The notes beneath the pieces are model-generated. The model searched no databases and was not told the origin of the DNA. It worked only from the letters and a program-made list of their open reading frames with translations. A stretch of DNA of 51,553 bases from an uncultured Mycoplasmatota bacterium (lineage in GTDB: Bacteria; Bacillota_I; Bacilli_A; RF39; UBA660). Every line of letters begins with the position of its first letter. Position 1 is the first letter of the stretch. The stretch is from assembly GCA_947574085.1 (NCBI GenBank), contig CANPIH010000001.1, positions 1-51,553 on the forward strand, read 5' to 3'. This document shows, one piece after another, positions 17,684 to 43,071 of the stretch. The translations under genes and the position numbers were made by a program.

Positions 17684-19873
17684 TTAATCGTCATCCCCAA
17701 AAAAATCATCAAAAAATTCATCATCGGTAATAATTGCATCATCTACAATTACACTATCTACATCAATATTAATTTTGGGTTGATCTGGAAGTTTATCTTT
17801 TTTTTCTTTTTTGGGTTGCCTTTTTATAGATGTTTTCTCAGTATTTATTTCCTCTACCTTTGGAATAGCAGAGTTTTGTTTTCTTACTTCTTCTTTTTGC
17901 GTATTTTCCATTACTTCTTTTTTAGGTAATGATTCCATTTCTTTCTTCTGTCTTGCTTCTTCTTCGTCTAATTCTTTTAGTTTTTTATCAATATCTGCAA
18001 TCATACGGTCAATTTCTTCATTAGACGTAGGAGCATTTTTTAAAAAAGGATTTGGAAGTCCCATTCCAGGAAAAGCATTCATAGTAGGCATTCCACTTGG
18101 TTCTATAAAATTAGGCATTCCCATGGCTAAATTTTCTTTATTTTTATCTAAATTTTCAAGCATTGCTTTTCTTTTTTCTTCTGAAACGTATTTTTTAATA
18201 TCAAACAAAGCTATTGCCATTTCTTTTCTAGTAGGCAATTCGGCTTTCTGACGATTAATTCCCCAGTCCATTTTAAAATCTGGTTCTAACTTAGTTTTAA
18301 ATGGATATTTTCTCAAGCGCATAATTATAGCTTCAAATAATTTTAATTTCTGCAAATCTGTCACTGTAACTAATGGAGTGGATGCAGTTTTATCTTTTTC
18401 TTTAGATTTCACATCTCCACACATTTTACTAATTTCTTCTAAAGCAGCCATTTCGGTACTGATCAAATACACCCAATTACCACAATTTCCTTTTATTACT
18501 TCCGCTACTTCTTTTCCATATACATCATTTAATTGAGCAAAATTTTGAATAATAAAAGTAAATCTAATATCACGACTTCGAGCTGCTGAAACCATACTAT
18601 CGACATCCTTTAAAGGAGGCATATTAGCAAATTCATCTAAAATAAAATTAGTACGAAAAGGAAGTTTTCCACCAGTTTCTTTTGCTACGTCTATTAAAGT
18701 TTCATAGCATTGTTTAATAAAAATAGTAAGTAAACTATGATAAGTCGTTTTTTCATCATGAATAATCATAAATACTGCTGTTTTTTCTTTCCCAATATCG
18801 CGCATATTGAAATCACTATGAGAAAGCATTTCACTTAATTTTTCACGGGAAGCAAAAATACGTATTTTTTGTCTAAAAGTAGAAGTAATACCACCTTGCG
18901 TATCTTTCGGAGCATTAATGGTATTTGAAGCAAATATGTATGGACTAGAAGCCTCTCCTTTTAGCAAAAAATATTCCTTAATATAAGTACTTGTAGCAAA
19001 TCTCTCTTCCCCAATACTGCTCATAAAATTGATAGAATTTAAATTAATTTCCTCTTCTTTGGCATCCATAAATAATCCGAGTGCAAGGCCAGAAAAATAA
19101 TCCGCTGCACTATTTTCCCAAAATGGTTCACTTTTATTATTTGGATCGCGAATAATATTTAAACCAACGTCATCCAAAAGCTCAGTAGATTTATCTATAT
19201 TTCCATCTTTATAGTAACGATAAGGCAAAGTTAAAGGATTCCAAGCATTTCCTCTTTGTGGGTCTCTAAAATTCAAAACAATAATTTTATATCCCTGTTT
19301 TTTTAAATAATCCGCACTATATTCATAAATCTCACCTTTAGGATCCGTAATAATCATACTTTCACCCTTTTTAGCAAGTAAATTTACCATTGGTTTTACC
19401 AAACATTCGGTTTTACCAGATCCAGTAGACCCAATAACCAAATTGTGATATTCTCCATTATCAACCCATATATCCTTACCATTATTGATAAGAGGCATCC
19501 CAGCAGCACTAACTTTACGAGCGGTTGGAAGAACATGTTCAATATTTTTATCTTCTTTAATTTCTTTATCTCTACTCCATCTAGAGTATCCCTTCTCTTC
19601 TTTTTCTTTTATGTTAAGACCAAATCCATGTTTTTCACGATCAAAAATATAAGAGGATACAGATGTAAAAATAATAATAAGAGCAATAAAAAACATTAGC
19701 ATGGTAAGAACTAAATTATCCCCTACGAAGGCTGGAAAAGGATTCAAGCCATAAAATTCACCATCATTAAAAAAGGAAGTAAAATTAAGTACTGCTATAG
19801 CACACAAGTACAATAAAAATATACAAAATATGATAAACATTGTAAAATCTTTTGGGGTTACTCTAAATTTCAT
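17684..19873 (-). CDS. Type IV coupling protein (VirD4/TraG family) with a long low-complexity acidic C-terminal tail
   Basis: Two N-terminal TM segments. Walker A IGSTGSGKTE, TDPKGEI, Walker B ILDEFANMP, RSRDIRFTFIIQNFAQL. Start set at the ATG at 19873 (RBS GGAGGA). Confidence 0.9.
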   Translation of the reverse strand: MKFRVTPKDFTMFIIFCIFLLYLCAIAVLNFTSFFNDGEFYGLNPFPAFVGDNLVLTMLMFFIALIIIFTSVSSYIFDREKHGFGLNIKEKEEKGYSRWSRDKEIKEDKNIEHVLPTARKVSAAGMPLINNGKDIWVDNGEYHNLVIGSTGSGKTECLVKPMVNLLAKKGESMIITDPKGEIYEYSADYLKKQGYKIIVLNFRDPQRGNAWNPLTLPYRYYKDGNIDKSTELLDDVGLNIIRDPNNKSEPFWENSAADYFSGLALGLFMDAKEEEINLNSINFMSSIGEERFATSTYIKEYFLLKGEASSPYIFASNTINAPKDTQGGITSTFRQKIRIFASREKLSEMLSHSDFNMRDIGKEKTAVFMIIHDEKTTYHSLLTIFIKQCYETLIDVAKETGGKLPFRTNFILDEFANMPPLKDVDSMVSAARSRDIRFTFIIQNFAQLNDVYGKEVAEVIKGNCGNWVYLISTEMAALEEISKMCGDVKSKEKDKTASTPLVTVTDLQKLKLFEAIIMRLRKYPFKTKLEPDFKMDWGINRQKAELPTRKEMAIALFDIKKYVSEEKRKAMLENLDKNKENLAMGMPNFIEPSGMPTMNAFPGMGLPNPFLKNAPTSNEEIDRMIADIDKKLKELDEEEARQKKEMESLPKKEVMENTQKEEVRKQNSAIPKVEEINTEKTSIKRQPKKEKKDKLPDQPKINIDVDSVIVDDAIITDDEFFDDFFGDDD

Positions 19874-19988
19874 AATACATTCCTCCAACTTATATGTAAA
19901 ATAATTTGTTTTTAAATTTCCATTTTATTTTACTATATAATTTATTTTTTCGCAATTGAATTATTTTCATAAATGGCTTAAATTAAAA

Positions 19989-20774
19989 TTAGTTATTTTT
20001 TACAATATTTACCATTTTGTTATTATTTATTTGATATATATATGTAGAAGATTTTCCAACTTCACTAAAATACCCCTTTAAAAGAATAAAATAATCATTT
20101 TTATTATTAAAAATATTAATTATTCCTTTGGCTTGGTATATAGGAACTTCAATACTGTCCTTCGTATTGTAAATGTCTATATGTAAAACGGAAGTTTTTT
20201 TATTTACAACTGAAATAACAATAGAAAATAATTTCTCATCATTCGAAACATCACTGGCGTTAGAAGCAAATAGAATTTTTTCCTTTTTTCCATCTTTATT
20301 AAAATCGTGTTCTACTACTTCATTTTGTTCTAAAAAAGAATAGCCTGCAACTCCATTTTCAGCTAAATATTTTTCTAATATTAAAATTTCTTCATCATTC
20401 ATTTCACGCTTATCAAAATTAATAACGTTCAAATCTATTTCTTCACTTCCAGCAATATAATTATCAGAAATATTTATCCAGTTATTGTTTTGATCAAAAA
20501 AATTCCATTTGCTAATATACTTTAATTTAAAAATACCAAGATTTTCTCCATATTGAAATACTTGAAAATCACTTTTAGCATTGTTTATGACAAGGCTTTT
20601 ATCTATATTTTTACATCCTTTTTTATTGCATTGATAACTAGAAACATTTGACAATAATAAATAGCCTTGTTTTTGAACTTTATTCACTATATAAACAACC
20701 ATTACTCCCAATACAATTAAAACAAGTATAACCCAAAAAGAAGGAACTTTCACAATTTTTTTTAAGCTTTCCAT
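19989..20774 (-). CDS. Membrane-anchored extracytoplasmic protein of the T4SS module (VirB8-like role possible, unproven)
   Basis: Start at the ATG at 20774 (RBS AAGGAG). A single N-terminal TM (VPSFWVILVLIVLGVMVVYIV) is followed by a soluble domain. Confidence 0.45.
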   Translation of the reverse strand: MESLKKIVKVPSFWVILVLIVLGVMVVYIVNKVQKQGYLLLSNVSSYQCNKKGCKNIDKSLVINNAKSDFQVFQYGENLGIFKLKYISKWNFFDQNNNWINISDNYIAGSEEIDLNVINFDKREMNDEEILILEKYLAENGVAGYSFLEQNEVVEHDFNKDGKKEKILFASNASDVSNDEKLFSIVISVVNKKTSVLHIDIYNTKDSIEVPIYQAKGIINIFNNKNDYFILLKGYFSEVGKSSTYIYQINNNKMVNIVKNN

Positions 20775-20784
20775 AGTATTCTCC

Positions 20785-22956
20785 TTAATATCTATAAACA
20801 ACTATTTGATCCAAATCATTTACATTATAGGAATTAACACTTCCTGAAGCTGGATCATATACAGTAAAGTTCTGACCAACAATCTGTTTTAAAACCACGT
20901 AATGACCTCTTGGATGAGCATCATTTTTAAAATGTAGTAAAATACTCGTACGATCACTCATATTGTCTTGAACTTTATCTAATTTTTCTACCGCATTCCC
21001 TGAAAATTTTTCAGATTTAACAAAATTAAAGGAAGGAGCAAAAAAGCGAATGGCATTATTATTCCAATAAATATTTGCACCATCAAAACCTCCAGTTGCG
21101 TTCATTTTTTCAACCAACATTCCAGGATTAAAATTTGCCACATTATTTATAATAGTTCCAGAACAAGACATAGCAATAGCAACGGAAGTAACAGCACAGC
21201 CAGAACGACTCATAGTAGTAGAAGAAGTTCCAAGTTTAATACTTCCCCATCTTGGATCTCCCTGTTTATAAATGGTACAATTACCAGAACCTGGTTCTCC
21301 TATTCCAGAAGATGGTGTACAAACATCAGCATCCAAACCAAATATTTTTTTTCGACTACTTATCATGGATTGTAATTGATAAACCAAATAAGCGTATTTA
21401 TCTTCTTCAGTAGTGGGAACACAATCGTCTCCACCAGCAACTGTACAAGTTTTTCCAGACGCACAAGCATCCTTTACTCGTTCTGGTATATTATCATCAT
21501 AAATAGCACTTGCATATACGCAACCACCTATCTTCCAATCGCCAGGATTATACCAATAATCACCTAAATAAGCATATTCACCCATAAAATCCGTTATAGA
21601 GCTAAACTTTGATGCAAAACTTAAGAATCCTGCAACACCTTCTGCTAGACTATTATAAGATTTACATGCTGACAAACCACCTGTATTTGTACAGCCTAGA
21701 CCCCAATAATTATTCCTTGATGCACCCGGTGAATATCCTTCCACATCGGCTCTTACAAAAACCAATTCGGGATTGATGCCATTGGAAGAAGCCATATCGT
21801 AAATCATTTCAGCATTATCACCAAGAATTTTAGCCCCCCCTCCATGACTATTTCCATAATTCTTAGCAAGACGAATAAAAACTTCTCTAGGTAATTTTGT
21901 GTTGTGTAACGAAATGGGACTACAATTTAAATTGGGTTCTTCACTAAAAGCAGTGTAAATTGTATAATACTCAATATCTCTTCCAAAATAATACTCAAGT
22001 GTACGATAAAGCTCAAATTGTGTATCTATTTGTTCCAATAAATATTTTGAACCATATATACTCATGGCAGTTAATTTTAAAGTAAATGGTAACCATGACT
22101 TAGGAATATCTTTCCCTTTTGCTTTTTCAATTTCTTCTACCCAATCCATAGGAATAACTTGTTGCTCTTCTTCATTTTCATGTACCATATGATAAAAATA
22201 TTTAGAATTTGCAGATATATATTCATCTTTTACTTTTTCTTTGTAACTAAATGCAGAATACAAAGCGGAAATAATTTTACGATCTTTTCCAATTATCATT
22301 CCTTTAGTACTTCGTACCGCATCGTTAATTTCACTATATTTTTCTTCATCACCAGTTAACTCTGTAAAACTAGAAGCTTGTTCATCATATTCTTTTAATA
22401 CAATACAATTTGTTGCCATATTAGCAATTAAACGACTTCTCGCTACAATAGACATCATTTCATAAACCACTTGGTTTTCCACATCTCCAGCGTTGTAATT
22501 ATCTGTCCAGACGATTCCTGCAATATAGGTGTCATAATCGTATTCTTTGTATTCAAAACGTTCTGTATCAGAAATAGTAACCAAATATGGATCTGTAATG
22601 GGCTTATAATCTAAATCGTTTTTATACTTTTGTGTATAACTTTCTTTTTCCCAAACTAAAATCACTTTATCACATGGTGTTTCATAATAGTCTGGATTGA
22701 TATTTCCTATCCCAAAAAAATCAAATTTAATCACTATTAAAATGAAAACAAATAAAAGAATACCTCCTAAAATAATCCAAAATATAGGACTTGTAACAAT
22801 AGTAATAAAACCCTTTACTAACAATCTTTTTGTTGCTTCTTTTATTGCCAAAGATGCTGGATTTACTCCATTATTTTCTAAATCAGAAGAAGCCGATTCT
22901 TCAATCGGCTCATGATTTGTATTTTGTTCTTGTAATTCTTCTTCATTGAAATCCAT
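20785..22956 (-). CDS. Membrane-anchored multidomain peptidoglycan hydrolase (SpoIID-like + glucosaminidase/muramidase-like + C39-like/CHAP-type Cys peptidase)
   Basis: TM at about aa 50-80. SpoIID-like YIAGIVWTDN..VVYEMMSIVARS. INPELVFVRADVEGYSPG..NNYWGLGC resembles the glucosaminidase family. The C-terminal GDPRWGS..MSRSGCAVTSVAIAM and GHYVVL resemble Cys/His peptidase motifs. Position and architecture resemble CwlT/TcpG/PrgK-type conjugation hydrolases. Confidence 0.7.
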   Translation of the reverse strand: MDFNEEELQEQNTNHEPIEESASSDLENNGVNPASLAIKEATKRLLVKGFITIVTSPIFWIILGGILLFVFILIVIKFDFFGIGNINPDYYETPCDKVILVWEKESYTQKYKNDLDYKPITDPYLVTISDTERFEYKEYDYDTYIAGIVWTDNYNAGDVENQVVYEMMSIVARSRLIANMATNCIVLKEYDEQASSFTELTGDEEKYSEINDAVRSTKGMIIGKDRKIISALYSAFSYKEKVKDEYISANSKYFYHMVHENEEEQQVIPMDWVEEIEKAKGKDIPKSWLPFTLKLTAMSIYGSKYLLEQIDTQFELYRTLEYYFGRDIEYYTIYTAFSEEPNLNCSPISLHNTKLPREVFIRLAKNYGNSHGGGAKILGDNAEMIYDMASSNGINPELVFVRADVEGYSPGASRNNYWGLGCTNTGGLSACKSYNSLAEGVAGFLSFASKFSSITDFMGEYAYLGDYWYNPGDWKIGGCVYASAIYDDNIPERVKDACASGKTCTVAGGDDCVPTTEEDKYAYLVYQLQSMISSRKKIFGLDADVCTPSSGIGEPGSGNCTIYKQGDPRWGSIKLGTSSTTMSRSGCAVTSVAIAMSCSGTIINNVANFNPGMLVEKMNATGGFDGANIYWNNNAIRFFAPSFNFVKSEKFSGNAVEKLDKVQDNMSDRTSILLHFKNDAHPRGHYVVLKQIVGQNFTVYDPASGSVNSYNVNDLDQIVVYRY

Positions 22957-22977
22957 ACAATTCACCTACTTAATTTG

Positions 22978-24762
22978 TTATAGACCTCCACCTGATCCAA
23001 AAGAATCTAATTCTTCTTGTGTAACTATAACATTAATACGCATTCTTCTATTACCACAAATAAATAGTGCTTCCCCTTGATTGTAATACTTGATGCTTTC
23101 TATTTCTGCATCATTTAAATCTATTAATTTTGATAAATCCTCTGTAGCTTGTTTACGGAGACCCATAATCAAATAATAAGAGGCATTATCAAAAATAGCT
23201 TTTCCATGAACCAAAACATTTGGTGCCGCAAAGTCAGTTGGCTGTTGAGTAATAATAATGGTTCCAGTGTTGTATTTACGACTACGTCTTTGAATTTGGG
23301 CTAAGAATTCAGCACCTAATTCATTACGAGTTGATAACAGTACATGTGCTTCATCCACACACATTACAGTATCCAATTCTTTGTCCAAACATAAACCCCA
23401 AGCGTATTTTAAAATATTAAAGAATAAAGCATTTTTAATATTTTCATCACTATTCATAAGCTCACGAATATTAAATACAATAAAATCACTTTCAATGTGT
23501 AAAGTTGTATGCCCAGTGAAATAATATTTTAATTCTTTTACAAGTGGTCTTACCTTTAATTCTAAACGCTCCATAACATCTTTTTCATGTGTTTTATCTG
23601 GCATGGACAAAAGTCTACCTTTAATAGTCGCATATACATCATCAAACGTTGGATAATCTTCACTATTTAGTTTAGTATAATCTGTATCGTAATCAATTTT
23701 ATAACGTTTATAAGTATCTTGAACAACTTCACTAAACATCGTTAATACATCTTCTTCAATTGAAGGAGAATAATATTTCATAAATGCTTTTAGTTGTTGT
23801 AATGTTCGAGTAAGAACAGTGTAACCTAATCCTTGTTCTATTTCTTCTTCATCAGCATCGACAACAATTTCTAAGGGATTGATCATACCAAACTCCCCAC
23901 CTTTTCCAAGGTCTAAAAAATCTCCACCAATGCTTCTAGTCATTTCAGCAAGTTCTCCTTCTGGATCAATACAAACAACTTTGTACCCATTTCTTAAATG
24001 ACCTCGAATTAATAGCTTTGCTGCTGTAGACTTACCACTACCGCTTGTTCCTAAAATAATCATATTGGCATTGTTACGATTGTTTTCTTTTTTTATCTTA
24101 TACAAAAATTGATTAAATAAAACAACACCACCAGAGAAATCCACACCAAATAAAATACTATTTCCAGGGTCTTTTACGCTATCAAAAATAAAAGGATACA
24201 TAGCAGCAACAGTCACAGATGGAATTGGTGTTCCTACTCGATTTTCTACATCTTGTTTTGGAAAAATAGGCAAAATTGATTTCAGCACTTTTTCTTGTTC
24301 AAACATCAATGGTATTCCACGCATTCCCATACCTTCCAAAAAGTTACGAACTTGCATTTTCTTCATTTCCAATTCTTCTTTATTATTTGCAGAAATAAAT
24401 AAATGCATTTGAAAATCAAAAATTCTTGCTTGAGTTGCTGCAAGCATTTGAATGAATTGTTCTAAAGATTCGTAATCTTGACGTATTCTTTCTTGAAAAG
24501 TTTTATCATTTTCTGTTTGATATCTTTGTTTTAAATCCGCTATTTCTTTATTTAGCATTCTTTGTAATGTAGAAAAAGCAATTGGAATATGTTTAATAGC
24601 AACTTTTACACCTGATATATTTGTAATATTTGCTAAGTAACCTTCTGCAATATATTTTGGAAAAGTAACTATAGTTAAAATGGTACAATACCTTCCACTG
24701 ATTACCATTTCTGTAGGTTTAAATTCAATCCCCTTTGGGGCTAATTGAGCTTTTATATTCAT
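22978..24762 (-). CDS. VirB4-family T4SS ATPase, C-terminal (ATPase) part
   Basis: Walker A ILGTSGSGKST, Walker B VMCVDEAHVLL, RRSRKYNTGTIIITQQPTDF. Only 594 aa; the N-terminal domain is encoded by the upstream ORF. Confidence 0.9.
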   Translation of the reverse strand: MNIKAQLAPKGIEFKPTEMVISGRYCTILTIVTFPKYIAEGYLANITNISGVKVAIKHIPIAFSTLQRMLNKEIADLKQRYQTENDKTFQERIRQDYESLEQFIQMLAATQARIFDFQMHLFISANNKEELEMKKMQVRNFLEGMGMRGIPLMFEQEKVLKSILPIFPKQDVENRVGTPIPSVTVAAMYPFIFDSVKDPGNSILFGVDFSGGVVLFNQFLYKIKKENNRNNANMIILGTSGSGKSTAAKLLIRGHLRNGYKVVCIDPEGELAEMTRSIGGDFLDLGKGGEFGMINPLEIVVDADEEEIEQGLGYTVLTRTLQQLKAFMKYYSPSIEEDVLTMFSEVVQDTYKRYKIDYDTDYTKLNSEDYPTFDDVYATIKGRLLSMPDKTHEKDVMERLELKVRPLVKELKYYFTGHTTLHIESDFIVFNIRELMNSDENIKNALFFNILKYAWGLCLDKELDTVMCVDEAHVLLSTRNELGAEFLAQIQRRSRKYNTGTIIITQQPTDFAAPNVLVHGKAIFDNASYYLIMGLRKQATEDLSKLIDLNDAEIESIKYYNQGEALFICGNRRMRINVIVTQEELDSFGSGGGL

Positions 24763-25316
24763 TCTGGCATCACCGTTCCTAACGTAGTAGCTTGTCCTCC
24801 ATTGAAGAAATTATCAATTAGCATTCTTAAGTCATTATTAGAAACTTGAGAAGAATTAAGCTTGCATGTTGATAAATTATTAATTAAATTATGAATACGT
24901 TTTTGAACAATTTCCAATTTTTTCTCTTTAAACAATATAAAATACTCGGTATCCACCACATTGTATTCTTGACTCATAAACATATTAGCTTTATTGATAT
25001 CTTGCATAATTAGTTTTCTTATAGCAGAACTATTTGAATTGTTATATAAAACTTGCAAGTGTGATAAATGAACATTTATATCTACTGGGCGATCAGCGAC
25101 AATCAGCCAAAATTCATAATCCATTGTATTATAAAAATTTCTTAAATTATAAATAACATTGTTTTGTGTGTCTTGATCCAAAATAAAAATGTTTTTAGGA
25201 GCAACTTTTACACCTGTAACGTATTCTCCTGAATCCAATTGAATCATTCCATTCATAATTTGCTTAATTGGCACCCAATCCTCTGTAAATTTACTTGTTA
25301 CTTTACTCTTTGCCAT
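24759..25316 (-). CDS. VirB4 N-terminal-domain protein (separate ORF, ATGA overlap with the ATPase part)
   Basis: FTEDWVPIKQIMNGMIQLDSGEYVTGVKVAPKNIFILD resembles the N-terminus of Gram-positive VirB4 proteins. The stop TGA overlaps the next ATG (24759-24762). Start placed at the ATG at 25316, because the track start is a TTG. Confidence 0.6.
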   Translation of the reverse strand: MAKSKVTSKFTEDWVPIKQIMNGMIQLDSGEYVTGVKVAPKNIFILDQDTQNNVIYNLRNFYNTMDYEFWLIVADRPVDINVHLSHLQVLYNNSNSSAIRKLIMQDINKANMFMSQEYNVVDTEYFILFKEKKLEIVQKRIHNLINNLSTCKLNSSQVSNNDLRMLIDNFFNGGQATTLGTVMPE

Positions 25317-34775: not shown

Positions 34776-34925
34776 CTATGTTTCTTTTAAACAGTTTTTC
34801 AAACAATCACTAGACACGTTATCATTTTCTACTGGACATTGTGCTTCACAAGTATTTTTTTTAATACTAACTTGAATACTTGGCCATATAAACGCATATA
34901 AGAATGTCGCTACTGCTACTATCCC
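34776..34925 (-). pseudogene. 5'-truncated third pilin copy
   Basis: The minus-strand frame reads ..GIVAVATFLYAFIWPSIQVSIKKNTCEAQCPVENDNVSSDCLKNCLKET*. The nucleotide sequence is clearly homologous to copy 1 across the TM-coding part and diverges at about 34922. There is no start codon or MKEATGELN leader in frame. Confidence 0.55.
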
Positions 34926-35170: not shown

Positions 35171-35959
35171 TTACATCCCCATCAGCATTAATACTGCAAA
35201 TATCAAAAGAATCATAACTCCAAGACCAGTTGTAATCAACATACTCATCGTTTTGGATTCCATTTTTTCTAATCTTTCCTTATATTTTGTTTCTCTTGCT
35301 TTTTGTTGTAAATTTGAAATCGTTTTGGAAAAAGCTAGCAATTGTTCTTGCTTATGCTCTTGACGTCCTAAGCTTAAACGATACAATAAACGCATCATAC
35401 GCATAGAATCTCTTACAGGATATTCTCTAGCAAAATTTACATAAGGTTCTATAGTATTGTTACCAGCATTGATCTCATTAATCAATTCTTGCAATCCCTC
35501 TCTAAATATAGGAGGAGCATCATTAATAGATTTTCCCAAAGCTACTGGCACTGTATAATGTTGAATAAGAATTTCTAAACTTTTTAAATAATGTGGCAAC
35601 ATAGAATTGATTTCGTGTAAGTGTGCTTTATAATATTTTTTTATATTCAAATAATCCAATTTAAAAACTAAAAAACCACCTAGAAAACAAAACAATACTG
35701 TTACATAATTCAATTTCGAAATCAAGCAAAATACTAAAACTATAATAGTAATTAATCCATTACGAATTCTTTTATTAAATAAAATATCACTATTTACACC
35801 TTCTCCATATTTTGCTTTTACATAAAAATCCCAATCGTCTTCTTTTAATTTACGGAAATAAACTTCATTATCTCTAATAAAACGATTTGTACTAATGCGT
35901 CCAGTGTAGTTCATAATGTAAAGGAAAATAACTCCAATAATTACAATTTCTATTGCCAT
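35171..35959 (-). CDS. TadC-like platform protein (T2SS-F family)
   Basis: 262 aa with TM segments at both ends flanking a cytoplasmic helical domain (LPHYLKSLEILIQHYTVPVALGKSINDAPPIFREGLQEL). Paired with the upstream paralog next to the TadA ATPase. Confidence 0.65.
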   Translation of the reverse strand: MAIEIVIIGVIFLYIMNYTGRISTNRFIRDNEVYFRKLKEDDWDFYVKAKYGEGVNSDILFNKRIRNGLITIIVLVFCLISKLNYVTVLFCFLGGFLVFKLDYLNIKKYYKAHLHEINSMLPHYLKSLEILIQHYTVPVALGKSINDAPPIFREGLQELINEINAGNNTIEPYVNFAREYPVRDSMRMMRLLYRLSLGRQEHKQEQLLAFSKTISNLQQKARETKYKERLEKMESKTMSMLITTGLGVMILLIFAVLMLMGM

Positions 35960-35960: not shown

Positions 35961-36854
35961 TTATTCTACCCCCACATCATCGTTATAATATTTTTCTCCA
36001 CTTATAAGAAAGAAACAGTTGATCCAAATGATGGCGTGCAAAACAAGTTTTACATACCAAATATCGAGAAGTTCAATATAACTATCTGTACCTAGCAAAA
36101 ACTGCATGGCCATTACAAGTAAAAATAAGGCAAGTCCAAATGTAATAAAACGTTTGTGAAAATTTTTACGATCTGCTTGATCACGATATACACCTTCTAC
36201 CAGTGCATCAATGTCCTGAGACATATTTTCTAAAGCTTCTCCAGAATCTTTAGCCCCTTCTTTCGTTATTTGTAAAAAAAGTTGATTCATATTTTTTACC
36301 ATATAGAAGGGATATTTTTCATTAAAGAAATCAATAGATTCGTCAATCGTTCCATTTTGATAAGACATTTCTATCATTATTTTTACATCTTGTAAAACAG
36401 GATCCTCCAAAATTCCAGAATCTCTTACTCCTTCTAGACTTTTTACATAACTTTGAGTTGTAGTAAATTCCATTATTACATTGGTTGTATAAATTTGAAT
36501 TTGTTCAAATATAAATTCACTGTAAATTTTTTGATATCTTAAATATGCCAAATAAGGGATAAAAGCAATAGATGCAAGTACATAAAAAATAACCGCTAGA
36601 ATATTGTAAAAGTAAAGATAAGAAATTCCACCAGCAATAACAGCAAATAAAATTACTTGACTAGTATATTGACGTACTGTAAATTCTTGTCCTAATGATT
36701 TTACTTTTTCTCTTACTTCTTTATAACTATAGGGAGCAAATTTGTCGTATGTATCTTTTACTTGTGTTATAAAGAATCGATAAACATTTTCTCCATTGTT
36801 TTGACGATAAGAGACAACATAAATCCCTATAATCCATAAAATGATTAATTCCAT
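35961..36854 (-). CDS. TadB-like platform protein (T2SS-F family)
   Basis: 297 aa with the same TM-helical domain-TM layout. 1-nt gap to the next gene. Confidence 0.65.
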   Translation of the reverse strand: MELIILWIIGIYVVSYRQNNGENVYRFFITQVKDTYDKFAPYSYKEVREKVKSLGQEFTVRQYTSQVILFAVIAGGISYLYFYNILAVIFYVLASIAFIPYLAYLRYQKIYSEFIFEQIQIYTTNVIMEFTTTQSYVKSLEGVRDSGILEDPVLQDVKIMIEMSYQNGTIDESIDFFNEKYPFYMVKNMNQLFLQITKEGAKDSGEALENMSQDIDALVEGVYRDQADRKNFHKRFITFGLALFLLVMAMQFLLGTDSYIELLDIWYVKLVLHAIIWINCFFLISGEKYYNDDVGVE

Positions 36855-36871: not shown

Positions 36872-38032
36872 CTAAATAACCTCTGTATTTGTCATTCTTG
36901 GCATACTATAAGTACTTGTATTCATAGTTGTAGTACTTGATTGTAATTTTGTAGCTGAAGCAGAAACATTATCATTATTTGTCCTAAAAATATTTTCTGG
37001 TACCATAACACCTTGAATAGCTAAATAATCTTTTAAATGTTTAGTTGGGTTTTTTAAAGCTAATTTTCCATCCATTGTTTTTTGATAAATGATATTCACT
37101 TGTGGCTTATTTTCCTCATCTACATAAAACTCACATATTTCCATAATTTCTCTTTGAAATCTTCCTAGTTCTTTGCTCATATATCCTTTTACATAAACTC
37201 CAATTTGAATATAGCGATGAATAGTAGTTAAAAATTGCTCAACATCCTGATTAGATTCCAACAAACTATACATACGCATAGGTATACTACTGGCTTTATC
37301 TGAGTGAATAGTTGATAAAATGTGATGCCCAGAAGAAATTGAATTACGTATTGCAAGTACAGCCTCAGCACTACGAACTTCAGACAATAATATCCAAATT
37401 GGATTTTGACGCATACAGGTAACCAAAACCTCTGAATAAGAAGCAATATTATTGGTTTTCATAGCCACTATATCTCTATGAGGAAAAATTCGATCCAAAT
37501 GAAGCTCTAATGTATCTTCAATTGTTATAATTTTTTCATCCTCTTTTGTAGTACCCGCCAAATATTTAACCAACTCTGTTTTTCCAGAACCTGTTTCTCC
37601 GCTTACTATAATATTCGCATGTCCTTTTACACATTGTAACAAAAAATCCAATAAATCTTCTGAAACGTATTTCTCATTAATTAATTTTTCTTTATTCAAA
37701 CGAATTTTTGCTGGAGTTTTACGAATCAAACAAGCAATTCCATTGGTAGCAATAGAATCATGTATAAAATTCAAACGCAATTCTGTAGATTCAGCATCTA
37801 AAAAAGGATGAGCCATATTGAAAGTCTTCCCCATAACATTTGAACATTGAAAAGCCAATTTTTCCATAAGGTTATTATTAATCTCTGGTCTTTCCACTTT
37901 ATAAACACCACGAGAAAGTGTCTTAACCCATACTTGTCCACCATTACTATAGGAAATATCTGTTACATCATCTACTCGTAAAAATTCTTCTAAAGGACCA
38001 AAGTCCAATTGAGAAAATATTGAATCATCCAT
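36872..38032 (-). CDS. TadA/CpaF-type secretion ATPase (T2SS-E / VirB11 superfamily)
   Basis: Walker A VSGETGSGKTE, Walker B-like MRQNPIWILLSEVR, His box GHHILSTIHS. Confidence 0.9.
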   Translation of the reverse strand: MDDSIFSQLDFGPLEEFLRVDDVTDISYSNGGQVWVKTLSRGVYKVERPEINNNLMEKLAFQCSNVMGKTFNMAHPFLDAESTELRLNFIHDSIATNGIACLIRKTPAKIRLNKEKLINEKYVSEDLLDFLLQCVKGHANIIVSGETGSGKTELVKYLAGTTKEDEKIITIEDTLELHLDRIFPHRDIVAMKTNNIASYSEVLVTCMRQNPIWILLSEVRSAEAVLAIRNSISSGHHILSTIHSDKASSIPMRMYSLLESNQDVEQFLTTIHRYIQIGVYVKGYMSKELGRFQREIMEICEFYVDEENKPQVNIIYQKTMDGKLALKNPTKHLKDYLAIQGVMVPENIFRTNNDNVSASATKLQSSTTTMNTSTYSMPRMTNTEVI

Positions 38033-38063: not shown

Positions 38064-38903
38064 TTATTGATTATTGTTATTATCATTATTATTATCATTT
38101 TGATTTGTGCTTGAGGTTGTATTTTGCGGAATTGTTGCACTTTTTGCTAAAATGAAACTTTTAATATAATCACTTGATACATTGGTTTCTCCAGGATTTG
38201 CACTATAAGATGCATTTCTTGGAACTGGAACAATCTCAATTGAAGATCCACTTATATACCCAGCTTTCATTAATAATTCATACATATCATTTGGTACAGC
38301 AAATAATAACTCACTTGGTGTACGAGATTCTACAGTTGTTTCAAACACATGATTTCCTTGACTGTCTTTTACCGCCAATACTTTAATGCTTTCAATAAAT
38401 TTTCCATACATAACAAGACCTGTATCGTCAATTCCTTTAAAATACAAATCAATATAATTTTCAGGATAAATTGAATTACCATAAGTAGTATGTAAATTAA
38501 CATTCAAACTATAAATCGTATAGCCATCTGGAATATCTGCAAATGCACTATCAGGCATTTCATTGGATTTCAAAATTTGTGATTTATAAAACATACTATT
38601 AGCTGGCACAGTTGTACCAAAAGACACATAATTATTAATAAGTTCATTGGCATTTGTAATTAAATTTGAACTATTTCTCACTACACTACTAGATACTTCC
38701 ATATAACCAATCATGTCAGAAGTAATTAAAGTACGTGAAGATATTTCTTGTTTTGCATATGGTACAGTAACTGGAGTTGTAGCTTGTTTTACACGATAAT
38801 TATAACCTAAATATATAACCAATATAGCAAGTAATACTCCCAAAATTGTTACAGTGTTTTTGTTGGCTAAAAATCTTTTAACCGTTGTTAATACATTTCC
38901 CAT
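38064..38903 (-). CDS. CpaB/RcpC-like pilus assembly protein (N-terminal TM + SAF-like domain)
   Basis: TM TVTILGVLLAILVIYLGY, then VTVPYAKQEISSRTLITSDMIGYMEV, typical of the CpaB N-terminal region. Asn/Asp-rich C-terminus. Confidence 0.6.
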   Translation of the reverse strand: MGNVLTTVKRFLANKNTVTILGVLLAILVIYLGYNYRVKQATTPVTVPYAKQEISSRTLITSDMIGYMEVSSSVVRNSSNLITNANELINNYVSFGTTVPANSMFYKSQILKSNEMPDSAFADIPDGYTIYSLNVNLHTTYGNSIYPENYIDLYFKGIDDTGLVMYGKFIESIKVLAVKDSQGNHVFETTVESRTPSELLFAVPNDMYELLMKAGYISGSSIEIVPVPRNASYSANPGETNVSSDYIKSFILAKSATIPQNTTSSTNQNDNNNDNNNNQ

Positions 38904-38915: not shown

Positions 38916-39338
38916 CTAATTATCGGATGCTTTTTCTGGAACCATAAGTTCTAGAATTGCATCCACTTTATTTACTATATCAAATGAAGTTTGATCACCT
39001 GCTATTGTAAAACTTTTCGATTTACTTGAAACTTTCACACTTACCTTTGGTGGTGCTTCATAAATATCATAAAATGATATTTCGTAAGTATTAAAGCTTA
39101 CATTTTCTGCAAACCTTCTAATAAACGATTCAATAAACTTTTCACGATCTATTTTAAGTTCGCCATACTTACGATAGTATCCATAATTTACAGCATCTAC
39201 CATAGCGGCTTCTGTAACTTCTTTAATTAAATAATAATCTTGTGTATTTTGAGTAGTAACGCTAGAAATCAACATCATAATAACTACTACAAAAACACCT
39301 AACATTATAATCCAATAACCCCAATACGTTTCTTTCAC
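38916..39338 (-). CDS. Small N-terminally anchored protein with a pilin-like leader
   Basis: MKETYWGYWIIMLGVFVVVIMMLISS resembles the MKEA/MREA leaders of the pilin and pseudopilin genes. Confidence 0.45.
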   Translation of the reverse strand: MKETYWGYWIIMLGVFVVVIMMLISSVTTQNTQDYYLIKEVTEAAMVDAVNYGYYRKYGELKIDREKFIESFIRRFAENVSFNTYEISFYDIYEAPPKVSVKVSSKSKSFTIAGDQTSFDIVNKVDAILELMVPEKASDN

Positions 39339-39355: not shown

Positions 39356-42316
39356 TTACTTCCAAGCTGGTCCAACACTTGCTTTAAGTAATTCCACATT
39401 TACAACACCTGTTGCTGGATTTGCTTGTACTTGCTCTCCAGTCCATAACTTCCAATTATTATTTAAAGTTCCCGCTGAAAAGTAATTTTTATTAATAGGT
39501 CGATTGGATTGACCCATATCTCGTAAGAAAGAACTATATCCGGCAATGTTGGTAATACCATCTACACTTTCATACGTTAAATCTTGTGCTACATAAGTAC
39601 CAGTGTTTTTATTATAATCACGTATATTTTTCATATTGGTTGGTGTAATTGTAAATGTATATTCTGCATTTTGGTAAGCATTTTCTGGTAAATCCTCAGT
39701 AATTTTTTTAAACGTTTCTGACGCTTTTTGACTTGCTTTTTCATTCCAATTTATACCCAACTCACGATTATTTGGATTAAAATCATTTAGTGACACTGTA
39801 CGATAAAAATACGTATCTTCACCATCAAATACACAATTTATACAATAAACTTTGCACTCTGGACAATCTGGTTCAATAATTACACATTCGTATTGTCCTC
39901 TTTTTTCACAAGTTGTTTGATCTGGTAAAAGCGATTCAGGAGGACATTCGCATGAATATTCACAATCTGGACAATCCACCACATATACACAAACGTATTC
40001 TAAATCCGTTTCTATTCCTTTATTCTTTTTCTCTAAAATTTCATTTAATCTTCCTAACTTACAGGAAGGCTCAGAAGAATCATTATACTGCCCCATATTT
40101 GAAAATTTAAACGACCATTTGTACACTCCAGTTGGAGTTTTTAATGCTATTGGGAATACAGCTCCTAAATATTCATATGGTGATTGAGGTTCTCCACTTC
40201 CTGGAGGCTTTTCCTCGATAGTTCCATGTGGAAAATTAGATTGAAATTGGGTCTTATTTTTTATTGTTGCTATTCCCTCTGAAACTTTTTTTACATGAAA
40301 ATACTCTGTTGAAATATTTTCTGCTTTTGTCTCTAAACGACAACCACTCTCATCACAAAATAAATAAGTAATAGTTTCTAAATTTCCTTCTTGCATTCCA
40401 CTTGTATAGTATTCATTCATCTCTGTGTTTTTGGAATACGTTACCTCTTTATCATTATTTGGAGCTGGAATATTGTATTCTAATTCAATATTATATGGTT
40501 CTTCATAAGCAAAATCAAGAATAGGATCTAGACAAAGTTTATTACTCCAATTAAAACACTCTTTAAACTTTTTAATTATATCATTTAAATTAGATGCAGC
40601 CTTTTGCATTTTAGCTTTTGCCTCTATTACAGCTTGTTCAAATTGCTCTTCCGTATAATTACCTCGATCTTCTGTTTCTGTACATTGGCAACTTCCAGTA
40701 GAACAAATACCACCAGTTGGTGACGAACCATCAGAACATTTACCACACGATGTTGTAGTTATTTTAAGACCCCAAGTACGTTCAGTTGTCATTTTTGTTG
40801 CTGTTTTATTTGCTTGACAAACACCTGTTTTTTTATCACAAATGCTATCATCTATTGTATAGGCACTGTATGACGATGAAGCTATACTTTTAAATTCTTC
40901 ATCAGCCTTAGAAGTATCACAATGTGACGTTTTGGTAATTGTTGGATTTTTAGAAAGTTCTAGTTCTTTTTTGGCTTTTTCATAATCATTTGCAGCGCTT
41001 AACATTGCTTTTTGAGCATTAATAACATCTTCTATAAATCCGCTTTTATTAACAGTGTCATTGTCTCCACCAATTTTTATATTAGTTTTTTCTGGATCAC
41101 TGTCTGGATTTGTAGTATAACAAGTCCTTGTAGCCTTAATTGTTGTATCTTGTAATGTAAAATATCTTCCACTTGTTGTAAATTGTGATCCTGGTAAAGT
41201 CATATTATAATCTTCTTTACAATAAACTGCACAATAGGGATTATCGACAACTTGACCATCCGTCATCTTATAAGAAACCCCTTCTTCGTTTCCTAATGCA
41301 TCATTAAGAATACAATATTTAACATTCGTTTCTTCTTCTAAATTATCTGGATTATCTGGATTTGTAACTTTGATTGATGCTTCGTTTTCTCCTTCATCAC
41401 AATACGTTGGCATTTTTAAAACAGTTTCTTGATTGCATTTACTTTCTCCGTTTTTATCACAATACTTCTTATAATAATTTCCACCAGTAGTAGCTCCCTC
41501 TACGGAACCAATAATCGTTCCATTTATTCCCCCTTCTGTAGAAGAATTACTGCTAGAATCTCCTGAAAAAGAAAATGTAATAGTTTGTTGTCCTTGAGCT
41601 ACACATTCAAAAAGATTAGTATTAGAATTTTGGTTATTATTACCAGAGGTAACAGCACTAATGGTAAAATTACAATCTGGTTCTTTTACTCGCACCTTTA
41701 CACTACCACTTGTACCATTCCAATTTTGTTCTATAACATCACAACCATTACTAGAATTACAAATAAAATTTATATTACTAATATTTGTTGAAGAGGATAC
41801 TTTGTAAGTAGCTTCATAAGTATTGTTGGTTTCTCGAAAATTTTCTTTAATAAAAACCAATTGTTCACTTTCATTTTTAACGTTTCTAGCAGCATCAACT
41901 AATTGATTAATTTCACTTGCCAAATCTCCTGAAACTGTATGGTAGTCTTTATACCTACGTACAGCCGCCGTAATAATATCATCATTCTTTCCAGAATTTA
42001 AAATATAAAGCAAACCTGGGTCATGCACACTCTGGCAGAAATAATTATTTGCCACTCGGTTTGGTTCTGAAGGATACCCAACTAACCTTTGTCCATAGTT
42101 TTCACAATAGCCTTTGTACTCTTGACCATTGTATCTTACTTTTATTGAATAACTTTTATGGAGATGTTGTCCATCATAAATAATACCTGGATTAACTTTT
42201 GCATCTTCTCTTCTTGTAGTAGTACCTGCCAAAGCATTTAGTGCATAAACATTAGATGGTAGTAATAAAATTCCCATAAATAGAAATATAAAATATTTTA
42301 TTTTATTTTTTTTCAT
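39356..42316 (-). CDS. Large secreted Cys-rich protein (candidate adhesin or pilus-associated protein)
   Basis: Signal peptide MKKNKIKYFIFLFMGILLLPSNVYA. Cys clusters such as CPDCEYSCECPP and CPECKVYCINC. No LPXTG motif and no C-terminal TM. Confidence 0.6.
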   Translation of the reverse strand: MKKNKIKYFIFLFMGILLLPSNVYALNALAGTTTRREDAKVNPGIIYDGQHLHKSYSIKVRYNGQEYKGYCENYGQRLVGYPSEPNRVANNYFCQSVHDPGLLYILNSGKNDDIITAAVRRYKDYHTVSGDLASEINQLVDAARNVKNESEQLVFIKENFRETNNTYEATYKVSSSTNISNINFICNSSNGCDVIEQNWNGTSGSVKVRVKEPDCNFTISAVTSGNNNQNSNTNLFECVAQGQQTITFSFSGDSSSNSSTEGGINGTIIGSVEGATTGGNYYKKYCDKNGESKCNQETVLKMPTYCDEGENEASIKVTNPDNPDNLEEETNVKYCILNDALGNEEGVSYKMTDGQVVDNPYCAVYCKEDYNMTLPGSQFTTSGRYFTLQDTTIKATRTCYTTNPDSDPEKTNIKIGGDNDTVNKSGFIEDVINAQKAMLSAANDYEKAKKELELSKNPTITKTSHCDTSKADEEFKSIASSSYSAYTIDDSICDKKTGVCQANKTATKMTTERTWGLKITTTSCGKCSDGSSPTGGICSTGSCQCTETEDRGNYTEEQFEQAVIEAKAKMQKAASNLNDIIKKFKECFNWSNKLCLDPILDFAYEEPYNIELEYNIPAPNNDKEVTYSKNTEMNEYYTSGMQEGNLETITYLFCDESGCRLETKAENISTEYFHVKKVSEGIATIKNKTQFQSNFPHGTIEEKPPGSGEPQSPYEYLGAVFPIALKTPTGVYKWSFKFSNMGQYNDSSEPSCKLGRLNEILEKKNKGIETDLEYVCVYVVDCPDCEYSCECPPESLLPDQTTCEKRGQYECVIIEPDCPECKVYCINCVFDGEDTYFYRTVSLNDFNPNNRELGINWNEKASQKASETFKKITEDLPENAYQNAEYTFTITPTNMKNIRDYNKNTGTYVAQDLTYESVDGITNIAGYSSFLRDMGQSNRPINKNYFSAGTLNNNWKLWTGEQVQANPATGVVNVELLKASVGPAWK

Positions 42317-43071
42317 AATACTCTACTCCTTTTCTTTTTTATAAGAATCACAGTAGTAGCAACCCCCGCTACAATAATGATAATTATTATACTATTTATA
42401 ATTATTTTATTGTCTTGATAAAACGCTTGTAGTTTTTCAAAAAAATTCTTATTATTATCTTGATGATTTTTTTCTATTTCTGTTTCTTCATTTTTTTTAT
42501 ATTCTTTTATCTTGTCTTTAAATTCGTTTATAGAAATGTTACTGGACGATAAAAACTCTTGGCAGTAATAAAAATCAGTGACTCCATTACATTCTGGCCA
42601 TTCCGAAAAAAAATTATAAATAGGTGTCGTAAGAGTGAATTTTCGAAATAATTCTCCAGCACAAGAATACTTATCTGAATAAACTTCTATAGTATAAGTT
42701 TTCAGATTGTACACATCTTCCGTTCTAAATTTCATTGAACCATTCTCTGTATCTTTATATCTGTATGTTATAACATTATTATCCAAATCATTACTAACTT
42801 TAACATAAATATCATCAGTAATATTCAAAATACTTATATCAAATCCTTTTACATAATAATCAACTAAACCATCTTCACTATCTGTAACACCATCTATATC
42901 TACTAATTTTCCGGCGTATATTTCCACTACTTCATAGGTTGCTTTTACATTGGCAACTATATCGTTTAATTCTGCTTGTTCACTATAACTACAAGAACTA
43001 ATAGCTTTAACTGAATTTGGAGTCAATAATATAATCGCTAGTAAAAACAATTTTTGCAAATTTGTTTTCAT
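42313..43071 (-). CDS. Secreted protein with a C-terminal TM anchor; first gene of the array
   Basis: Signal peptide ..LLTPNSVKA. C-terminal IIIIIIVAGVATTVILIKKKRSR. 4-nt overlap with the next gene. Confidence 0.5.
   Translation of the reverse strand: MKTNLQKLFLLAIILLTPNSVKAISSCSYSEQAELNDIVANVKATYEVVEIYAGKLVDIDGVTDSEDGLVDYYVKGFDISILNITDDIYVKVSNDLDNNVITYRYKDTENGSMKFRTEDVYNLKTYTIEVYSDKYSCAGELFRKFTLTTPIYNFFSEWPECNGVTDFYYCQEFLSSSNISINEFKDKIKEYKKNEETEIEKNHQDNNKNFFEKLQAFYQDNKIIINSIIIIIIVAGVATTVILIKKKRSRVL

Follow-up and report, generated by a model that had tools for sequence, protein, structure and literature searches.

What is a Tad-like filament module doing in one continuous array with a Gram-positive type IV secretion system (T4SS) on a bacterial chromosome? 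The question is raised by contig CANPIH010000001.1 of an uncultured Mycoplasmatota bacterium from the RF39 lineage, an entire 51.5-kb metagenome-assembled contig that we analyzed as a whole and refer to here as the window. From 43071 down to 17684 it carries 24 open reading frames (ORFs, g01 to g24), all on the minus strand, which form a 25-kb array with two internal halves, a Tad-like filament module on the g01-g12 side and a Gram-positive T4SS in g13-g24. A first-pass annotation of this DNA had drawn the same single-strand array, and family matches to the components bear out the joining of a Tad-like module to a T4SS that it described. Its overall reading, namely joined modules on a chromosome without mobility genes, stands; the novelty of the pairing itself does not. 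We propose that the array is probably a host-fixed, vertically inherited descendant of a conjugation apparatus of the pLS20/pZB18 type, and that its two halves derive from one ancestral transfer operon and not from a chance fusion.

Intergenic spacing within the array ranges from -62 to 131 nt, with the exception of a 364-nt gap between 35171 and 34806. None of the 24 ORFs is disrupted, the Walker motifs are intact, and the Walker A sequences quoted in the first-pass annotation are present. The 364-nt gap houses a decayed pilin gene, which had been recognized at the outset and is real. The initial count of only three promoter-like sites fails, since a scan of 30000-44000 returned 101 sites versus 90 expected by chance; the top three minus-strand sites (11/12 matches) do, however, lie inside the two largest gaps. 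The features of these gaps are:

34776-34979, minus strand: stop-interrupted remnant of a decayed pilin gene (frame translation ...VGIVAVATFLYAFIWPSIQ...)
35039-35067, minus strand: candidate internal promoter before the pilin genes (TTGACT-17-TATAAT with a TG extension; consensus match only)
31933-31961, minus strand: candidate internal promoter in the 131-nt gap at the junction of the halves (TTGACA-17-TAGAAT; consensus match only)

The T4SS half was assigned from its sequence, and the evidence for it is firm. Its genes, in the order of transcription, are:

31522..31908, minus strand: g13, VirB2-like T4SS pilin-domain protein (PF18895 at 2.7e-4)
30354..31463, minus strand: g14, N-terminally anchored extracellular protein (no significant family in the scans)
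29146..30330, minus strand: g15, signal peptide, Cys-rich ectodomain (16 Cys) and C-terminal VirB2-like domain (PF18895 at 1.1e-3)
28368..29078, minus strand: g16, signal peptide, ectodomain and C-terminal VirB2-like domain (PF18895 at 6.8e-4)
26200..28383, minus strand: g17, VirB6-like polytopic protein whose N-terminal segment is VirB2-like and whose tail is long and hydrophilic (PF18895 at 1.9e-4)
25649..26191, minus strand: g18, 180-aa coiled-coil protein, poorly conserved and present in just 2 related loci
25303..25617, minus strand: g19, VirB3/PrgI-like small membrane protein, 104 aa (residues 2-96 of a Mycoplasma VirB3-VirB4 fusion model, 0.018)
24759..25364, minus strand: g20, VirB4 N-terminal domain as a protein of its own, 201 aa (NCBIfam VirB4_plasma residues 96-276, 6e-16)
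22978..24762, minus strand: g21, VirB4 ATPase, 594 aa, Walker A GTSGSGKS (AAA_10/P-loop_TraG)
20785..22965, minus strand: g22, multidomain cell-wall hydrolase (VirB1 role) with SpoIID-like and C39-like peptidase parts (PF13529 at 7e-4, TIGR02669 at 1.8e-4)
19989..20801, minus strand: g23, N-terminally anchored 270-aa protein in the VirB8 position, with genes of similar size at the same place in related locus L088 and in pZB18
17684..19888, minus strand: g24, VirD4-type coupling protein, Walker A GSTGSGKT, acidic C-terminal tail (PF02534 at 2.4e-54)

Both a VirB4 ATPase and a VirD4-type coupling protein, as looked for in a T4SS of the MPF_FATA-like class, are thus present. The former (g21) matches the Thermoanaerobacter VirB4 structure (PDB 4AG5) at 7.5e-59 and is 78-96% identical among relatives, with at most 29.6% identity to any plasmid VirB4; the latter (g24) also carries TrwB_AAD_bind (PF10412, 1e-25) and TraG-D_C (PF12696, 9e-24) domains, and its orthologues are 65-83% identical. 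The split VirB4 of the first-pass annotation is indeed divided into separate ORFs but is not a pseudogene, a reading that we rejected because the division into 104, 201 and 594 aa is kept in every relative in which the region is visible. Together, g19, g20 and g21 are colinear with a fused 894-aa Mycoplasma protein. Orthologues of g20 contain the TraC-like PF26593, and those of g19 match PrgI faintly, while the g19 hidden Markov model (HMM) weakly matches the DUF5592 protein of pZB18.

VirB6-like, VirB3-like and VirB1-like components were also found, by matches that are weak but concordant. Against NCBIfam, g17 matches the Mbov_0396 ICE transmembrane (TM) protein of mycoplasmal integrative and conjugative elements (ICEs) at 8e-7 and the pLS20_p028 family at 9e-5, both below cut-off, and g15 matches the Mbov_0395 'pilin-like conjugal transfer protein' at 1.7e-3. 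The T4SS_pilin family PF18895 gives weak matches in four adjacent proteins, each below the Pfam cut-off; it is matched by 31 of 62 homologues from related loci (best 1.6e-7), CagC by 2. The hydrolase g22 matches SpoIID in the PDB at 1e-3, and its orthologues carry either SpoIID or M23 plus lysozyme domains. At the plausible VirB8-like/PrgL/TcpC positions, neither g23, which is poorly conserved, nor g14 has a match to any family or in the PDB. Paralogues of g14 come after VirD4 in related loci L024 and L028.

The other half is, from its sequence, a genuine yet divergent Tad-like module. It comprises:

42313..43071, minus strand: g01, secreted 252-aa protein with a signal peptide, a C-terminal TM anchor and 4 Cys, the first gene of the array (sequence reading)
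39356..42316, minus strand: g02, 986-aa secreted Cys-rich protein with 37 Cys (sequence reading)
38916..39338, minus strand: g03, DUF5411 protein, N-terminally anchored and pilin-like, starting MKETYWGYW... (PF17424 at 3.6e-57)
38064..38903, minus strand: g04, CpaB/RcpC-like protein (TIGR03177 at 9.4e-5 and PF16976, RcpC, at 8e-4, both below cut-off)
36872..38032, minus strand: g05, CpaF/TadA/VirB11-family secretion ATPase, Walker A GETGSGKT (T2SSE at 3.9e-26)
35961..36854, minus strand: g06, polytopic membrane protein, a probable platform protein (TadB/T2SSF-like)
35171..35959, minus strand: g07, second polytopic membrane protein, TadC-like by position
34441..34806, minus strand: g08, pilin-like protein, probable true start at 34719 (MKEATGELN...; sequence reading)
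34177..34419, minus strand: g09, pilin-like protein, 80 aa, 4 Cys (sequence reading)
33558..34163, minus strand: g10, minor-pilin-like protein (MREAIGGTW..., N-terminal motif)
33032..33553, minus strand: g11, minor-pilin-like paralogue of g10 (homologue comparison)
32040..33035, minus strand: g12, TadZ/CpaE-like two-domain junction protein with a receiver-like N-domain and a MinD/ParA-like C-domain, degenerate Walker A NHAGSTT

The TadA/CpaF-type secretion ATPase expected of a Tad/Flp pilus (a type IVc filament) is represented by g05, which is 71-91% identical among relatives and whose best PDB match is CpaF (1.4e-17), followed by VirB11 (4e-15) and the archaeal FlaI/GspE proteins (FlaI 9e-14). 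Because its NCBIfam scores for VirB11 (1.7e-30) and for the TadA family (9.6e-29) are similar and both far below cut-off, we regard g05 as a divergent member of the CpaF/VirB11 family. Among the accessory proteins, the CpaB-like g04 has sub-cut-off matches and no match in the PDB, and the TadZ-like g12 fits by fold and architecture only. The latter found no match in Pfam, NCBIfam or, by profile search, PDB sequences, a set in which E. rectale TadZ was expected. Its AlphaFold2 model (predicted local distance difference test score, pLDDT, 69) retrieved HypB, UreG, ParF, MinD and FlhG with Foldseek at E 1e-4 to 1e-3, all generic SIMIBI/MinD/ParA folds, and TadZ itself was absent among the top 50 matches; the modeled architecture is nevertheless suggestive of the TadZ/CpaE type.

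The first-pass designation of g06 and g07 as TadB- and TadC-like received no direct HMM support, there being no T2SSF match up to E 10 and none in Pfam, NCBIfam or PDB profile searches. Comparison of g06 with g07 by hhalign gave a probability of 0.4%, and the AlphaFold2 model of g06 (pLDDT 46) was unusable. Size, position and topology are as expected of TadB and TadC, and what support the two calls have comes from a protein of the Priestia plasmid, 24% identical and carrying the NCBI annotation 'type II secretion system F family', which is matched by g06 at 6e-7 and by the HMM of g06 orthologues at 2.4e-13. The HMM of g07 matches the ORF following this T2SSF protein at 8.6e-15 and, weakly, the second of the two pZB18 membrane proteins (1.4e-4 in a search of 21 proteins).

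A common short leader, M-[KR]-E-x-x-G, followed by a hydrophobic helix, unites g08-g11 with the DUF5411 protein g03; the g08-type N-terminus MKEATGELNMTVV...FIWP is near-invariant in 137 homologues. Neither an Flp-type pilin nor TadE/TadF pseudopilins were found: the pilin-like proteins match no Flp_Fap, TadE or N_methyl HMM, and their N-termini (MKEATGELN...FIWP; M[RK]EAIGGTW) differ from the Flp-type G/XXXXEY, so that the resemblance is one of topology only. A Peptidase_A24 (TadV-type prepilin peptidase), of which the first-pass annotation had seen no motif either, was absent from the window ORFs and from the gene tables of the relatives, and could lie elsewhere in the genome. At the head of the array, g02 is a candidate adhesin or filament-associated surface protein. 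It evolves fast, with just 22-42% identity among relatives, and occupies the position that an adhesin (Tie, SpaA-like, Ig-like) takes in plasmid operons (PMC8557374). Homologues of g01, for which Pfam and NCBIfam scans gave no match, adjoin g02 in 50 related loci.

The plasmid operons are the key to the pairing. The first-pass annotation had assumed that Gram-positive conjugation systems lack pili, a premise that the comparison did not support, as the same ATPase module occurs, in collinear order, on pZB18, pLS20-like and Priestia plasmids. A tblastn search of 72,556 plasmids found 'CpaF/VirB11 family' ATPases on Gram-positive plasmids, 31-33% identical to g05; they sit inside the transfer operons of Enterococcus faecium pZB18, of a pLS20-like Bacillus subtilis plasmid and of a Priestia plasmid. 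The TadZ-like protein and DUF5411 gave no match in this search. The pZB18 series runs from a CPBP protease, a SpaA-like adhesin and small TM proteins through the CpaF/VirB11 ATPase, two membrane proteins and a 120-aa N-anchored, pseudopilin-like protein to a VirB2-family protein, VirD4, a pLS20_p028-type VirB6, DUF5592, a 205-aa protein, VirB4, a transglycosylase/C40 hydrolase, two more proteins and a MobP2 relaxase. The pLS20 series has been described as adhesin, small TM protein, 'VirB11', two membrane proteins, small TM proteins, VirD4, VirB6, VirB4, VirB8 and VirB1, with the remark that Gram-positive systems do not usually have a VirB11 homologue and with no pilus homologues reported (PMC8557374).

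HMMs built from the orthologues in RF39-like relatives matched pZB18 proteins at the corresponding positions (pseudopilin, g19 to DUF5592, VirB4 and VirD4), the g10 HMM hitting the 120-aa ORF at 3e-4, or at 1.6e-5 in a small set. The array thus reproduces the pLS20-family gene series in order (apart from the place of VirD4), in gene size and in HMM cross-matches (the ATPases, g07, g10/g11 and g19). On the Priestia koreensis plasmid NZ_CP061869.1, a relaxase (replication-relaxation family) and a type IV coupling protein (T4CP) are followed, about 10 kb on, by a Tad-like module composed of an Ig-like surface protein, DUF5411 (annotated at the equivalent place to g03), a SAF/CpaB protein, a ParA-like protein, CpaF, T2SSF and a second membrane protein; matches of this plasmid to the HMMs of g04, g05, g06 and g07 range from 2e-13 to 4e-60, that between g04 and the SAF-domain protein being 2e-31. 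By eye, small hydrophobic plasmid proteins resemble the pilins (...VAFPEVF vs ...FIWPNIK), a likeness without statistical support. Sequence comparison therefore suggests that the 'VirB11' sub-module of the plasmids, downstream of which the relaxase lies in those operons, corresponds to the Tad-like part of the array and may itself be a filament module of the Tad-like kind. The pairing of Tad and T4SS is thus an existing, poorly understood architecture of Gram-positive conjugation.

Although its closest mobile relatives are plasmids, the array shows the marks of a chromosomal locus. No relaxase or integrase family match was obtained with 50 window ORFs against Pfam, 20 cluster ORFs against NCBIfam and the 10 remaining ones against PHROGs, as the first-pass annotation had held, and neither was found in the neighborhoods of five relatives, so that the relaxase of a self-transmissible element is lacking from both. 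Integrase or recombinase, att repeats and a variable insertion site were likewise not found: the contig contains no tRNA gene, and its flanks share no repeat of at least 16 nt that could be att-like, 14-mers being at chance level. The GC content of the contig is 24-33%, and that of the array is close to that of its flanks. The flanks are ordinary housekeeping genes, as initially described, and are conserved in relatives. One (window 10609-17582) encodes TrpRS, BacA, RmuC, a DedA-type protein and a rhodanese; the other encodes FtsW/SpoVE and TyrRS. In L088, whose VirD4 is 76% identical, the order VirB4, hydrolase, anchored protein, VirD4, rhodanese, unknown, VTT, RmuC ... BacA, DUF3603, TrpRS agrees with that of the window, and in L024 and L028, whose junction protein is 65% identical, RmuC and BacA again come after VirD4. 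Because these housekeeping flanks recur in L088, L024 and L028, the locus appears to have held its chromosomal address through considerable divergence. An ordinary ICE that merely landed beside a Tad locus, which had been named as the scenario that would undo the first reading, was rejected on this flank synteny together with the lack of att repeats, tRNA and integrase. The 279-aa ORF after the rhodanese gene was considered as a g14 paralogue or a relaxase and is neither.

The junction protein g12 has 5571 matches in a 90%-clustered database, its family comprises 479 clusters at 50% identity, and in a one-genome-per-species collection a relative is encoded in 451 of the first 599 pattern-matching stretches. 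The best 80 records all come from uncultured gut metagenome-assembled genomes, labeled Bacilli, 'Tenericutes', 'Mycoplasma sp. CAG:776' or Erysipelotrichaceae, or belonging to evidently mislabeled bins; Gilroy et al. put comparable 'CAG' genomes in the order RF39. This order is prevalent in the human and animal gut, is entirely uncultured (PMC9606305) and is predicted to be walled and spore-forming (PMC10868615), with which the BacA, FtsW/SpoVE and CotZ-like genes of the window are consistent. We found no paper that links RF39 to T4SS, pili, VirB4 or CpaF.

Whether the two halves adjoin in related genomes, a check proposed with the first-pass annotation, was surveyed in 61 related loci with at least 4 kb past the junction gene. 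Their adjacency is not unique to this genome: a VirB2-like gene stands directly past the junction gene in 31 of the 61 loci and within 10 kb in 33, and in a few others it is the hydrolase-VirD4 pair that follows directly; 27 loci show no T4SS genes. Two distinct junctions, TadZ to VirB2-like and TadZ to hydrolase-VirD4, hence keep T4SS genes beside the Tad operon. In L024 and L028 (11100-16300) no VirB2-to-VirB4 block (g13-g21, about 9 kb) separates the TadZ-like gene from the hydrolase, the block having either moved elsewhere or been lost in these species; hydrolase, g23 and VirD4 keep their places ahead of RmuC and BacA. Related loci hold 1-6 VirB2-like genes, many of which are fusions with a variable, Cys-rich ectodomain. 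An orphan VirD4 lies between uppS and a small rhodanese-domain gene amid PriA, PBP, L33, EF-P and DnaE in one abundant human-gut species, and in another species g01-g02-DUF5411 stand apart from the ATPase; no overlap among the human-gut loci linked the dispersed parts to a single genome. Dispersal of this kind would be fatal to a mobile element, whereas a host machine can survive it. The orphan VirD4 was seen in L084-L087 (10001-12300 in each), and VirD4-rhodanese adjacency is common to these, to L088 and to the window (17295-17582). Where no T4SS follows the TadZ-like gene, we observed an ORF of about 250 aa instead (L080 11038-11784; L039 11077-11835; L057 11061-11807), which is a sortase in L080 (2.9e-14) and without clear family in L057.

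Conservation is uneven along the array. In the nearest relative the motors (TadA, g06, g07 and VirB4) are 91-96% identical and the exposed parts (g02, the VirB2 fusions and one pilin) 36-57%; among relatives at large the VirB2 fusions are roughly 31-54% identical. In L088, VirB4 is 93% identical versus 80% for the flanking RmuC.

These observations are most simply accounted for if an ancestor of the lineage fixed a pLS20-type apparatus in its chromosome, where it has since been inherited vertically, rearranged and strongly constrained, with the relaxase and regulatory parts not linked to the array. That a plasmid machine was taken over by its host is argued by its fixed chromosomal site in many related species and by the lack of a relaxase nearby. 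Several points weigh against this reading. Similarity to the plasmids is strong for the three ATPases only and weak for other components, with some E-values drawn from small search sets, and curated HMMs recognize neither the platform proteins nor the pilins nor the TadZ-like protein, no prepilin peptidase having been seen. The absence of a relaxase covers this contig and neighborhoods of about 10 kb in the relatives, not whole genomes, and the order-level label 'RF39-like' was given by database labels, not by phylogeny. T4SS genes are not adjacent to the Tad half in 27 of the 61 informative loci, and the candidate promoters in both large gaps mean that the halves could be separately expressed and functionally independent. 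Stand-alone CpaF-PilC/GspF-DUF5411 operons, moreover, exist in Roseburia, Ruminococcus and Eubacterium (PMC9523054).

The last three of these points are also what speaks for two uncoupled systems, a Tad-like adhesion pilus and a separate T4SS, that share an operon neighborhood, as do the position of the highest-ranking promoter-like site within the 131-nt junction gap and the order in L080, where genes for a sortase, LytR, a sigma factor and SpoVAD come straight after the Tad half. We consider this arrangement unlikely, given that the same ATPase module stands in the same relative order within genuine conjugation operons (PMC8557374) and that T4SS genes stay beside the TadZ-like gene through two different rearrangements. 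An active ICE, or a conjugation system mobilizing chromosomal DNA, whose relaxase, oriT and any integrase lie outside the contig, would have in its favor that every close mobile relative is a conjugation system whose relaxase lies a few kilobases from the T4SS, that VirD4 retains domains of the DNA-transfer type, that some species have the genes of the system dispersed, as the relaxase could be too, and that Mycoplasma ICEs move chromosomal DNA without a canonical relaxase (PMC12857230). Set against this are the 51.5 kb and five neighborhoods free of relaxase and integrase matches, the conservation of housekeeping flanks across species down to 65% TadZ identity, and the lack of tRNA, att repeat and GC contrast with the flanks. 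We rate this explanation as quite improbable overall and its narrow ICE version as very improbable, what remains going to chromosomal conjugation with a relaxase in trans. The decayed pilin gene, the poor conservation of g18 and g23 and the block missing in L024 and L028 could be taken as signs of a non-working remnant of an integrated plasmid or ICE; with 24 intact ORFs and Walker motifs, motor proteins 71-96% identical across species and a VirB4 split that is conserved and not degenerate, such decay is barely credible.

If the array is indeed a fixed descendant of a plasmid transfer operon, our best reading by analogy is that it would work as a single machine for contact-dependent translocation. 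Together with the platform-like g06 and g07, the CpaB-like g04 and the TadZ-like g12, the CpaF-type ATPase g05 would build a short filament from MKEATGE-type pilins (g08, g09), which the minor pilin-like g10, g11 and g03 would prime. The Cys-rich g02, together with g01, might decorate or extend this filament and contact a partner cell. The hydrolase g22 would then open the peptidoglycan for a channel formed by VirB3/VirB4 (g19-g21), the VirB6-like g17 and the VirB2-like ectodomain fusions g13, g15 and g16, and VirD4 (g24) would select and feed the substrate.

VirD4 and the plasmid ancestry argue for DNA as that substrate, which would mean chromosomal conjugation with a relaxase in trans or with an unconventional initiator. 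Order-wide vertical conservation, the very high conservation of the motors and the lack of a linked relaxase argue for a role that serves the host. On balance we lean, if only slightly, towards a host-serving role in cell-cell interaction or exchange over classical conjugation with a relaxase elsewhere. A further step, which we regard as doubtful, would be that RF39-like gut Bacilli depend on this Tad-plus-T4SS machine for an obligate interaction with partner cells (attachment, and exchange or acquisition of macromolecules), just as a T4SS and type IV pili are indispensable to Saccharibacteria. Were this true, RF39 would be a second independent monoderm lineage to have converted a conjugation apparatus into a lifestyle-defining organelle, and the fact that no RF39 member has been cultured alone would be explained. 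More generally, a conserved surface machine with fast-evolving Cys-rich ectodomains offers a lead for the ecology and cultivation of RF39.

Two genes divergent from the array lie immediately upstream of it:

43238..43711, plus strand: membrane-anchored thioredoxin-like protein with the motif CSHC, directly upstream of the array
43713..44429, plus strand: CPBP/CAAX-type intramembrane protease, divergent from g01 (PF02517 at 2.9e-13)

The CPBP gene, possibly an accessory of the array, is paired with a metallophosphoesterase gene (44441-45337, plus strand), and the same pair is found beside g01 in a distant human-gut relative (L097, CPBP at 3497-4177 and metallophosphoesterase at 2718-3500); CPBP also precedes the adhesin/CpaF block in pZB18 (L135 7641-8087). 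It is pure speculation that this protease might process the MKExxG leaders, no A24 peptidase being seen. Exported proteins of the array are rich in cysteine (37 residues in g02, 16 in g15, 14 in the hydrolase and 4-7 in the pilins), and the proximity of the thioredoxin-like protein suggests extracytoplasmic disulfide formation in an anaerobe, with a possible helper role for this protein. In B. subtilis, BdbDC forms disulfides for ComGC.

Further from the array, an EcoRI-type adenine methyltransferase occupies two ORFs (13430-13924 and 13946-14551, minus strand; profile positions 2-186 and 199-344) and is probably a frameshifted or otherwise interrupted orphan methylase, there being no endonuclease nearby. 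A replication-initiator-like protein of phage or plasmid type (8822-9574, minus strand; HTH_36; PHROG replication initiation at 1e-20) is encoded beside an ORF at 8030-8734 (minus strand), between the conserved housekeeping genes and leucine-rich-repeat genes; it does not belong to a relaxase family and may be a remnant of another mobile element. The leucine-rich-repeat proteins are of the BspA type, adjacent (1184-5032 and 5045-8020, plus strand; 1282 and 991 aa) and about 10 kb from the array; internalin-like proteins with such repeats occur in DUF5411/CpaF operons of Clostridia (PMC9523054). Upstream of tyrS, a T-box leader (49330-49515, minus strand) scores 90.9 bits versus the Rfam gathering score of 93, and a default Rfam scan of the window therefore reported no RNA family.

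Among known systems, the pLS20 family and pZB18 show a near-identical gene order, from the adhesin through CpaF/VirB11 to VirB6, the VirB3-like protein, VirB4, the wall hydrolase and VirD4. They differ in being plasmid-borne and in carrying a relaxase (MobP2 or MobQ), oriT, regulators and exclusion genes; the array is chromosomal and probably vertically inherited, no relaxase was found in the contig, regulators and exclusion genes are likewise lacking in cis, and its VirD4 stands at the array end. Identity is low (31-33% for the ATPase, at most 30% for VirB4), and the array has in addition the CpaB-like and TadZ-like proteins, Cys-rich ectodomains and multiple VirB2-like fusions. What is known, then, are the components and the architecture, and what is new is that walled Bacillota have them in a chromosomal, lineage-wide form unlinked to a relaxase, with VirB2-like arrays and a more complete set of Tad-like genes. 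The comparison also allows the puzzling 'VirB11' block of pLS20-family and enterococcal plasmids to be re-read as a Tad-like filament module, a testable idea about mating-pair formation by such plasmids in liquid; among the plasmids with this block is pZB18, a vancomycin-resistance plasmid with vanA genes. The Priestia plasmid, on which no VirB4, VirB6 or VirB2 is annotated in the roughly 53 kb inspected (L136/L138, 128-181 kb), may by analogy hold a T4CP-plus-Tad transfer system reminiscent of PAPI-1.

The stand-alone CpaF/DUF5411 operons of gut Clostridia, also Bacillota, share the ATPase, platform protein, DUF5411 protein and large surface protein with the array and have no T4SS reported adjacent (PMC9523054). 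In the thin pilus of R64 (IncI), in PAPI-1 and in Sulfolobus Ups/Ced, a type IV filament and VirB4/VirD4-type machinery move DNA from cell to cell (PMC12857230, PMC12102498); their hosts are diderm or archaeal and the filament is of another class (T4b, Ups), R64 and PAPI-1 being mobile elements and Ced a DNA importer without T4CP. Mycoplasma ICEs resemble the array through weak NCBIfam matches of g15, g17 and g19-g21 (Mbov_0395/0396/0397), all far below cut-offs, and differ from it in being mobile, in having a DDE transposase and in lacking a Tad-like module and a wall hydrolase (PMC12857230).

The closest functional parallel would appear to be the chromosomal T4SS of Patescibacteria, which derives from monoderm conjugation systems, usually lacks a relaxase, includes an array of 2-11 divergent VirB2-like genes and, jointly with type IV pili, is essential for epibiotic growth (PMC12102498, PMC12857230). 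Like that of Southlakia epibionticum, the array is a chromosomal, monoderm MPF_FATA-like T4SS with VirB2-like (PF18895) arrays and no relaxase nearby, in a lineage of reduced genomes; in Patescibacteria a type IV filament system is required alongside the T4SS. Unlike it, the array belongs to a walled Bacillota host and has a Tad-like filament module in physical linkage with its T4SS. According to a recent review, the patescibacterial T4SS is the one exception among monoderms in having VirB2-like pilins and in serving its host by a function other than conjugation (PMC12857230). If walled Bacillota provided a second case, such co-option would not be unique to Patescibacteria, and the case could point to a Gram-positive plasmid lineage of the pLS20 type as the source of such systems.

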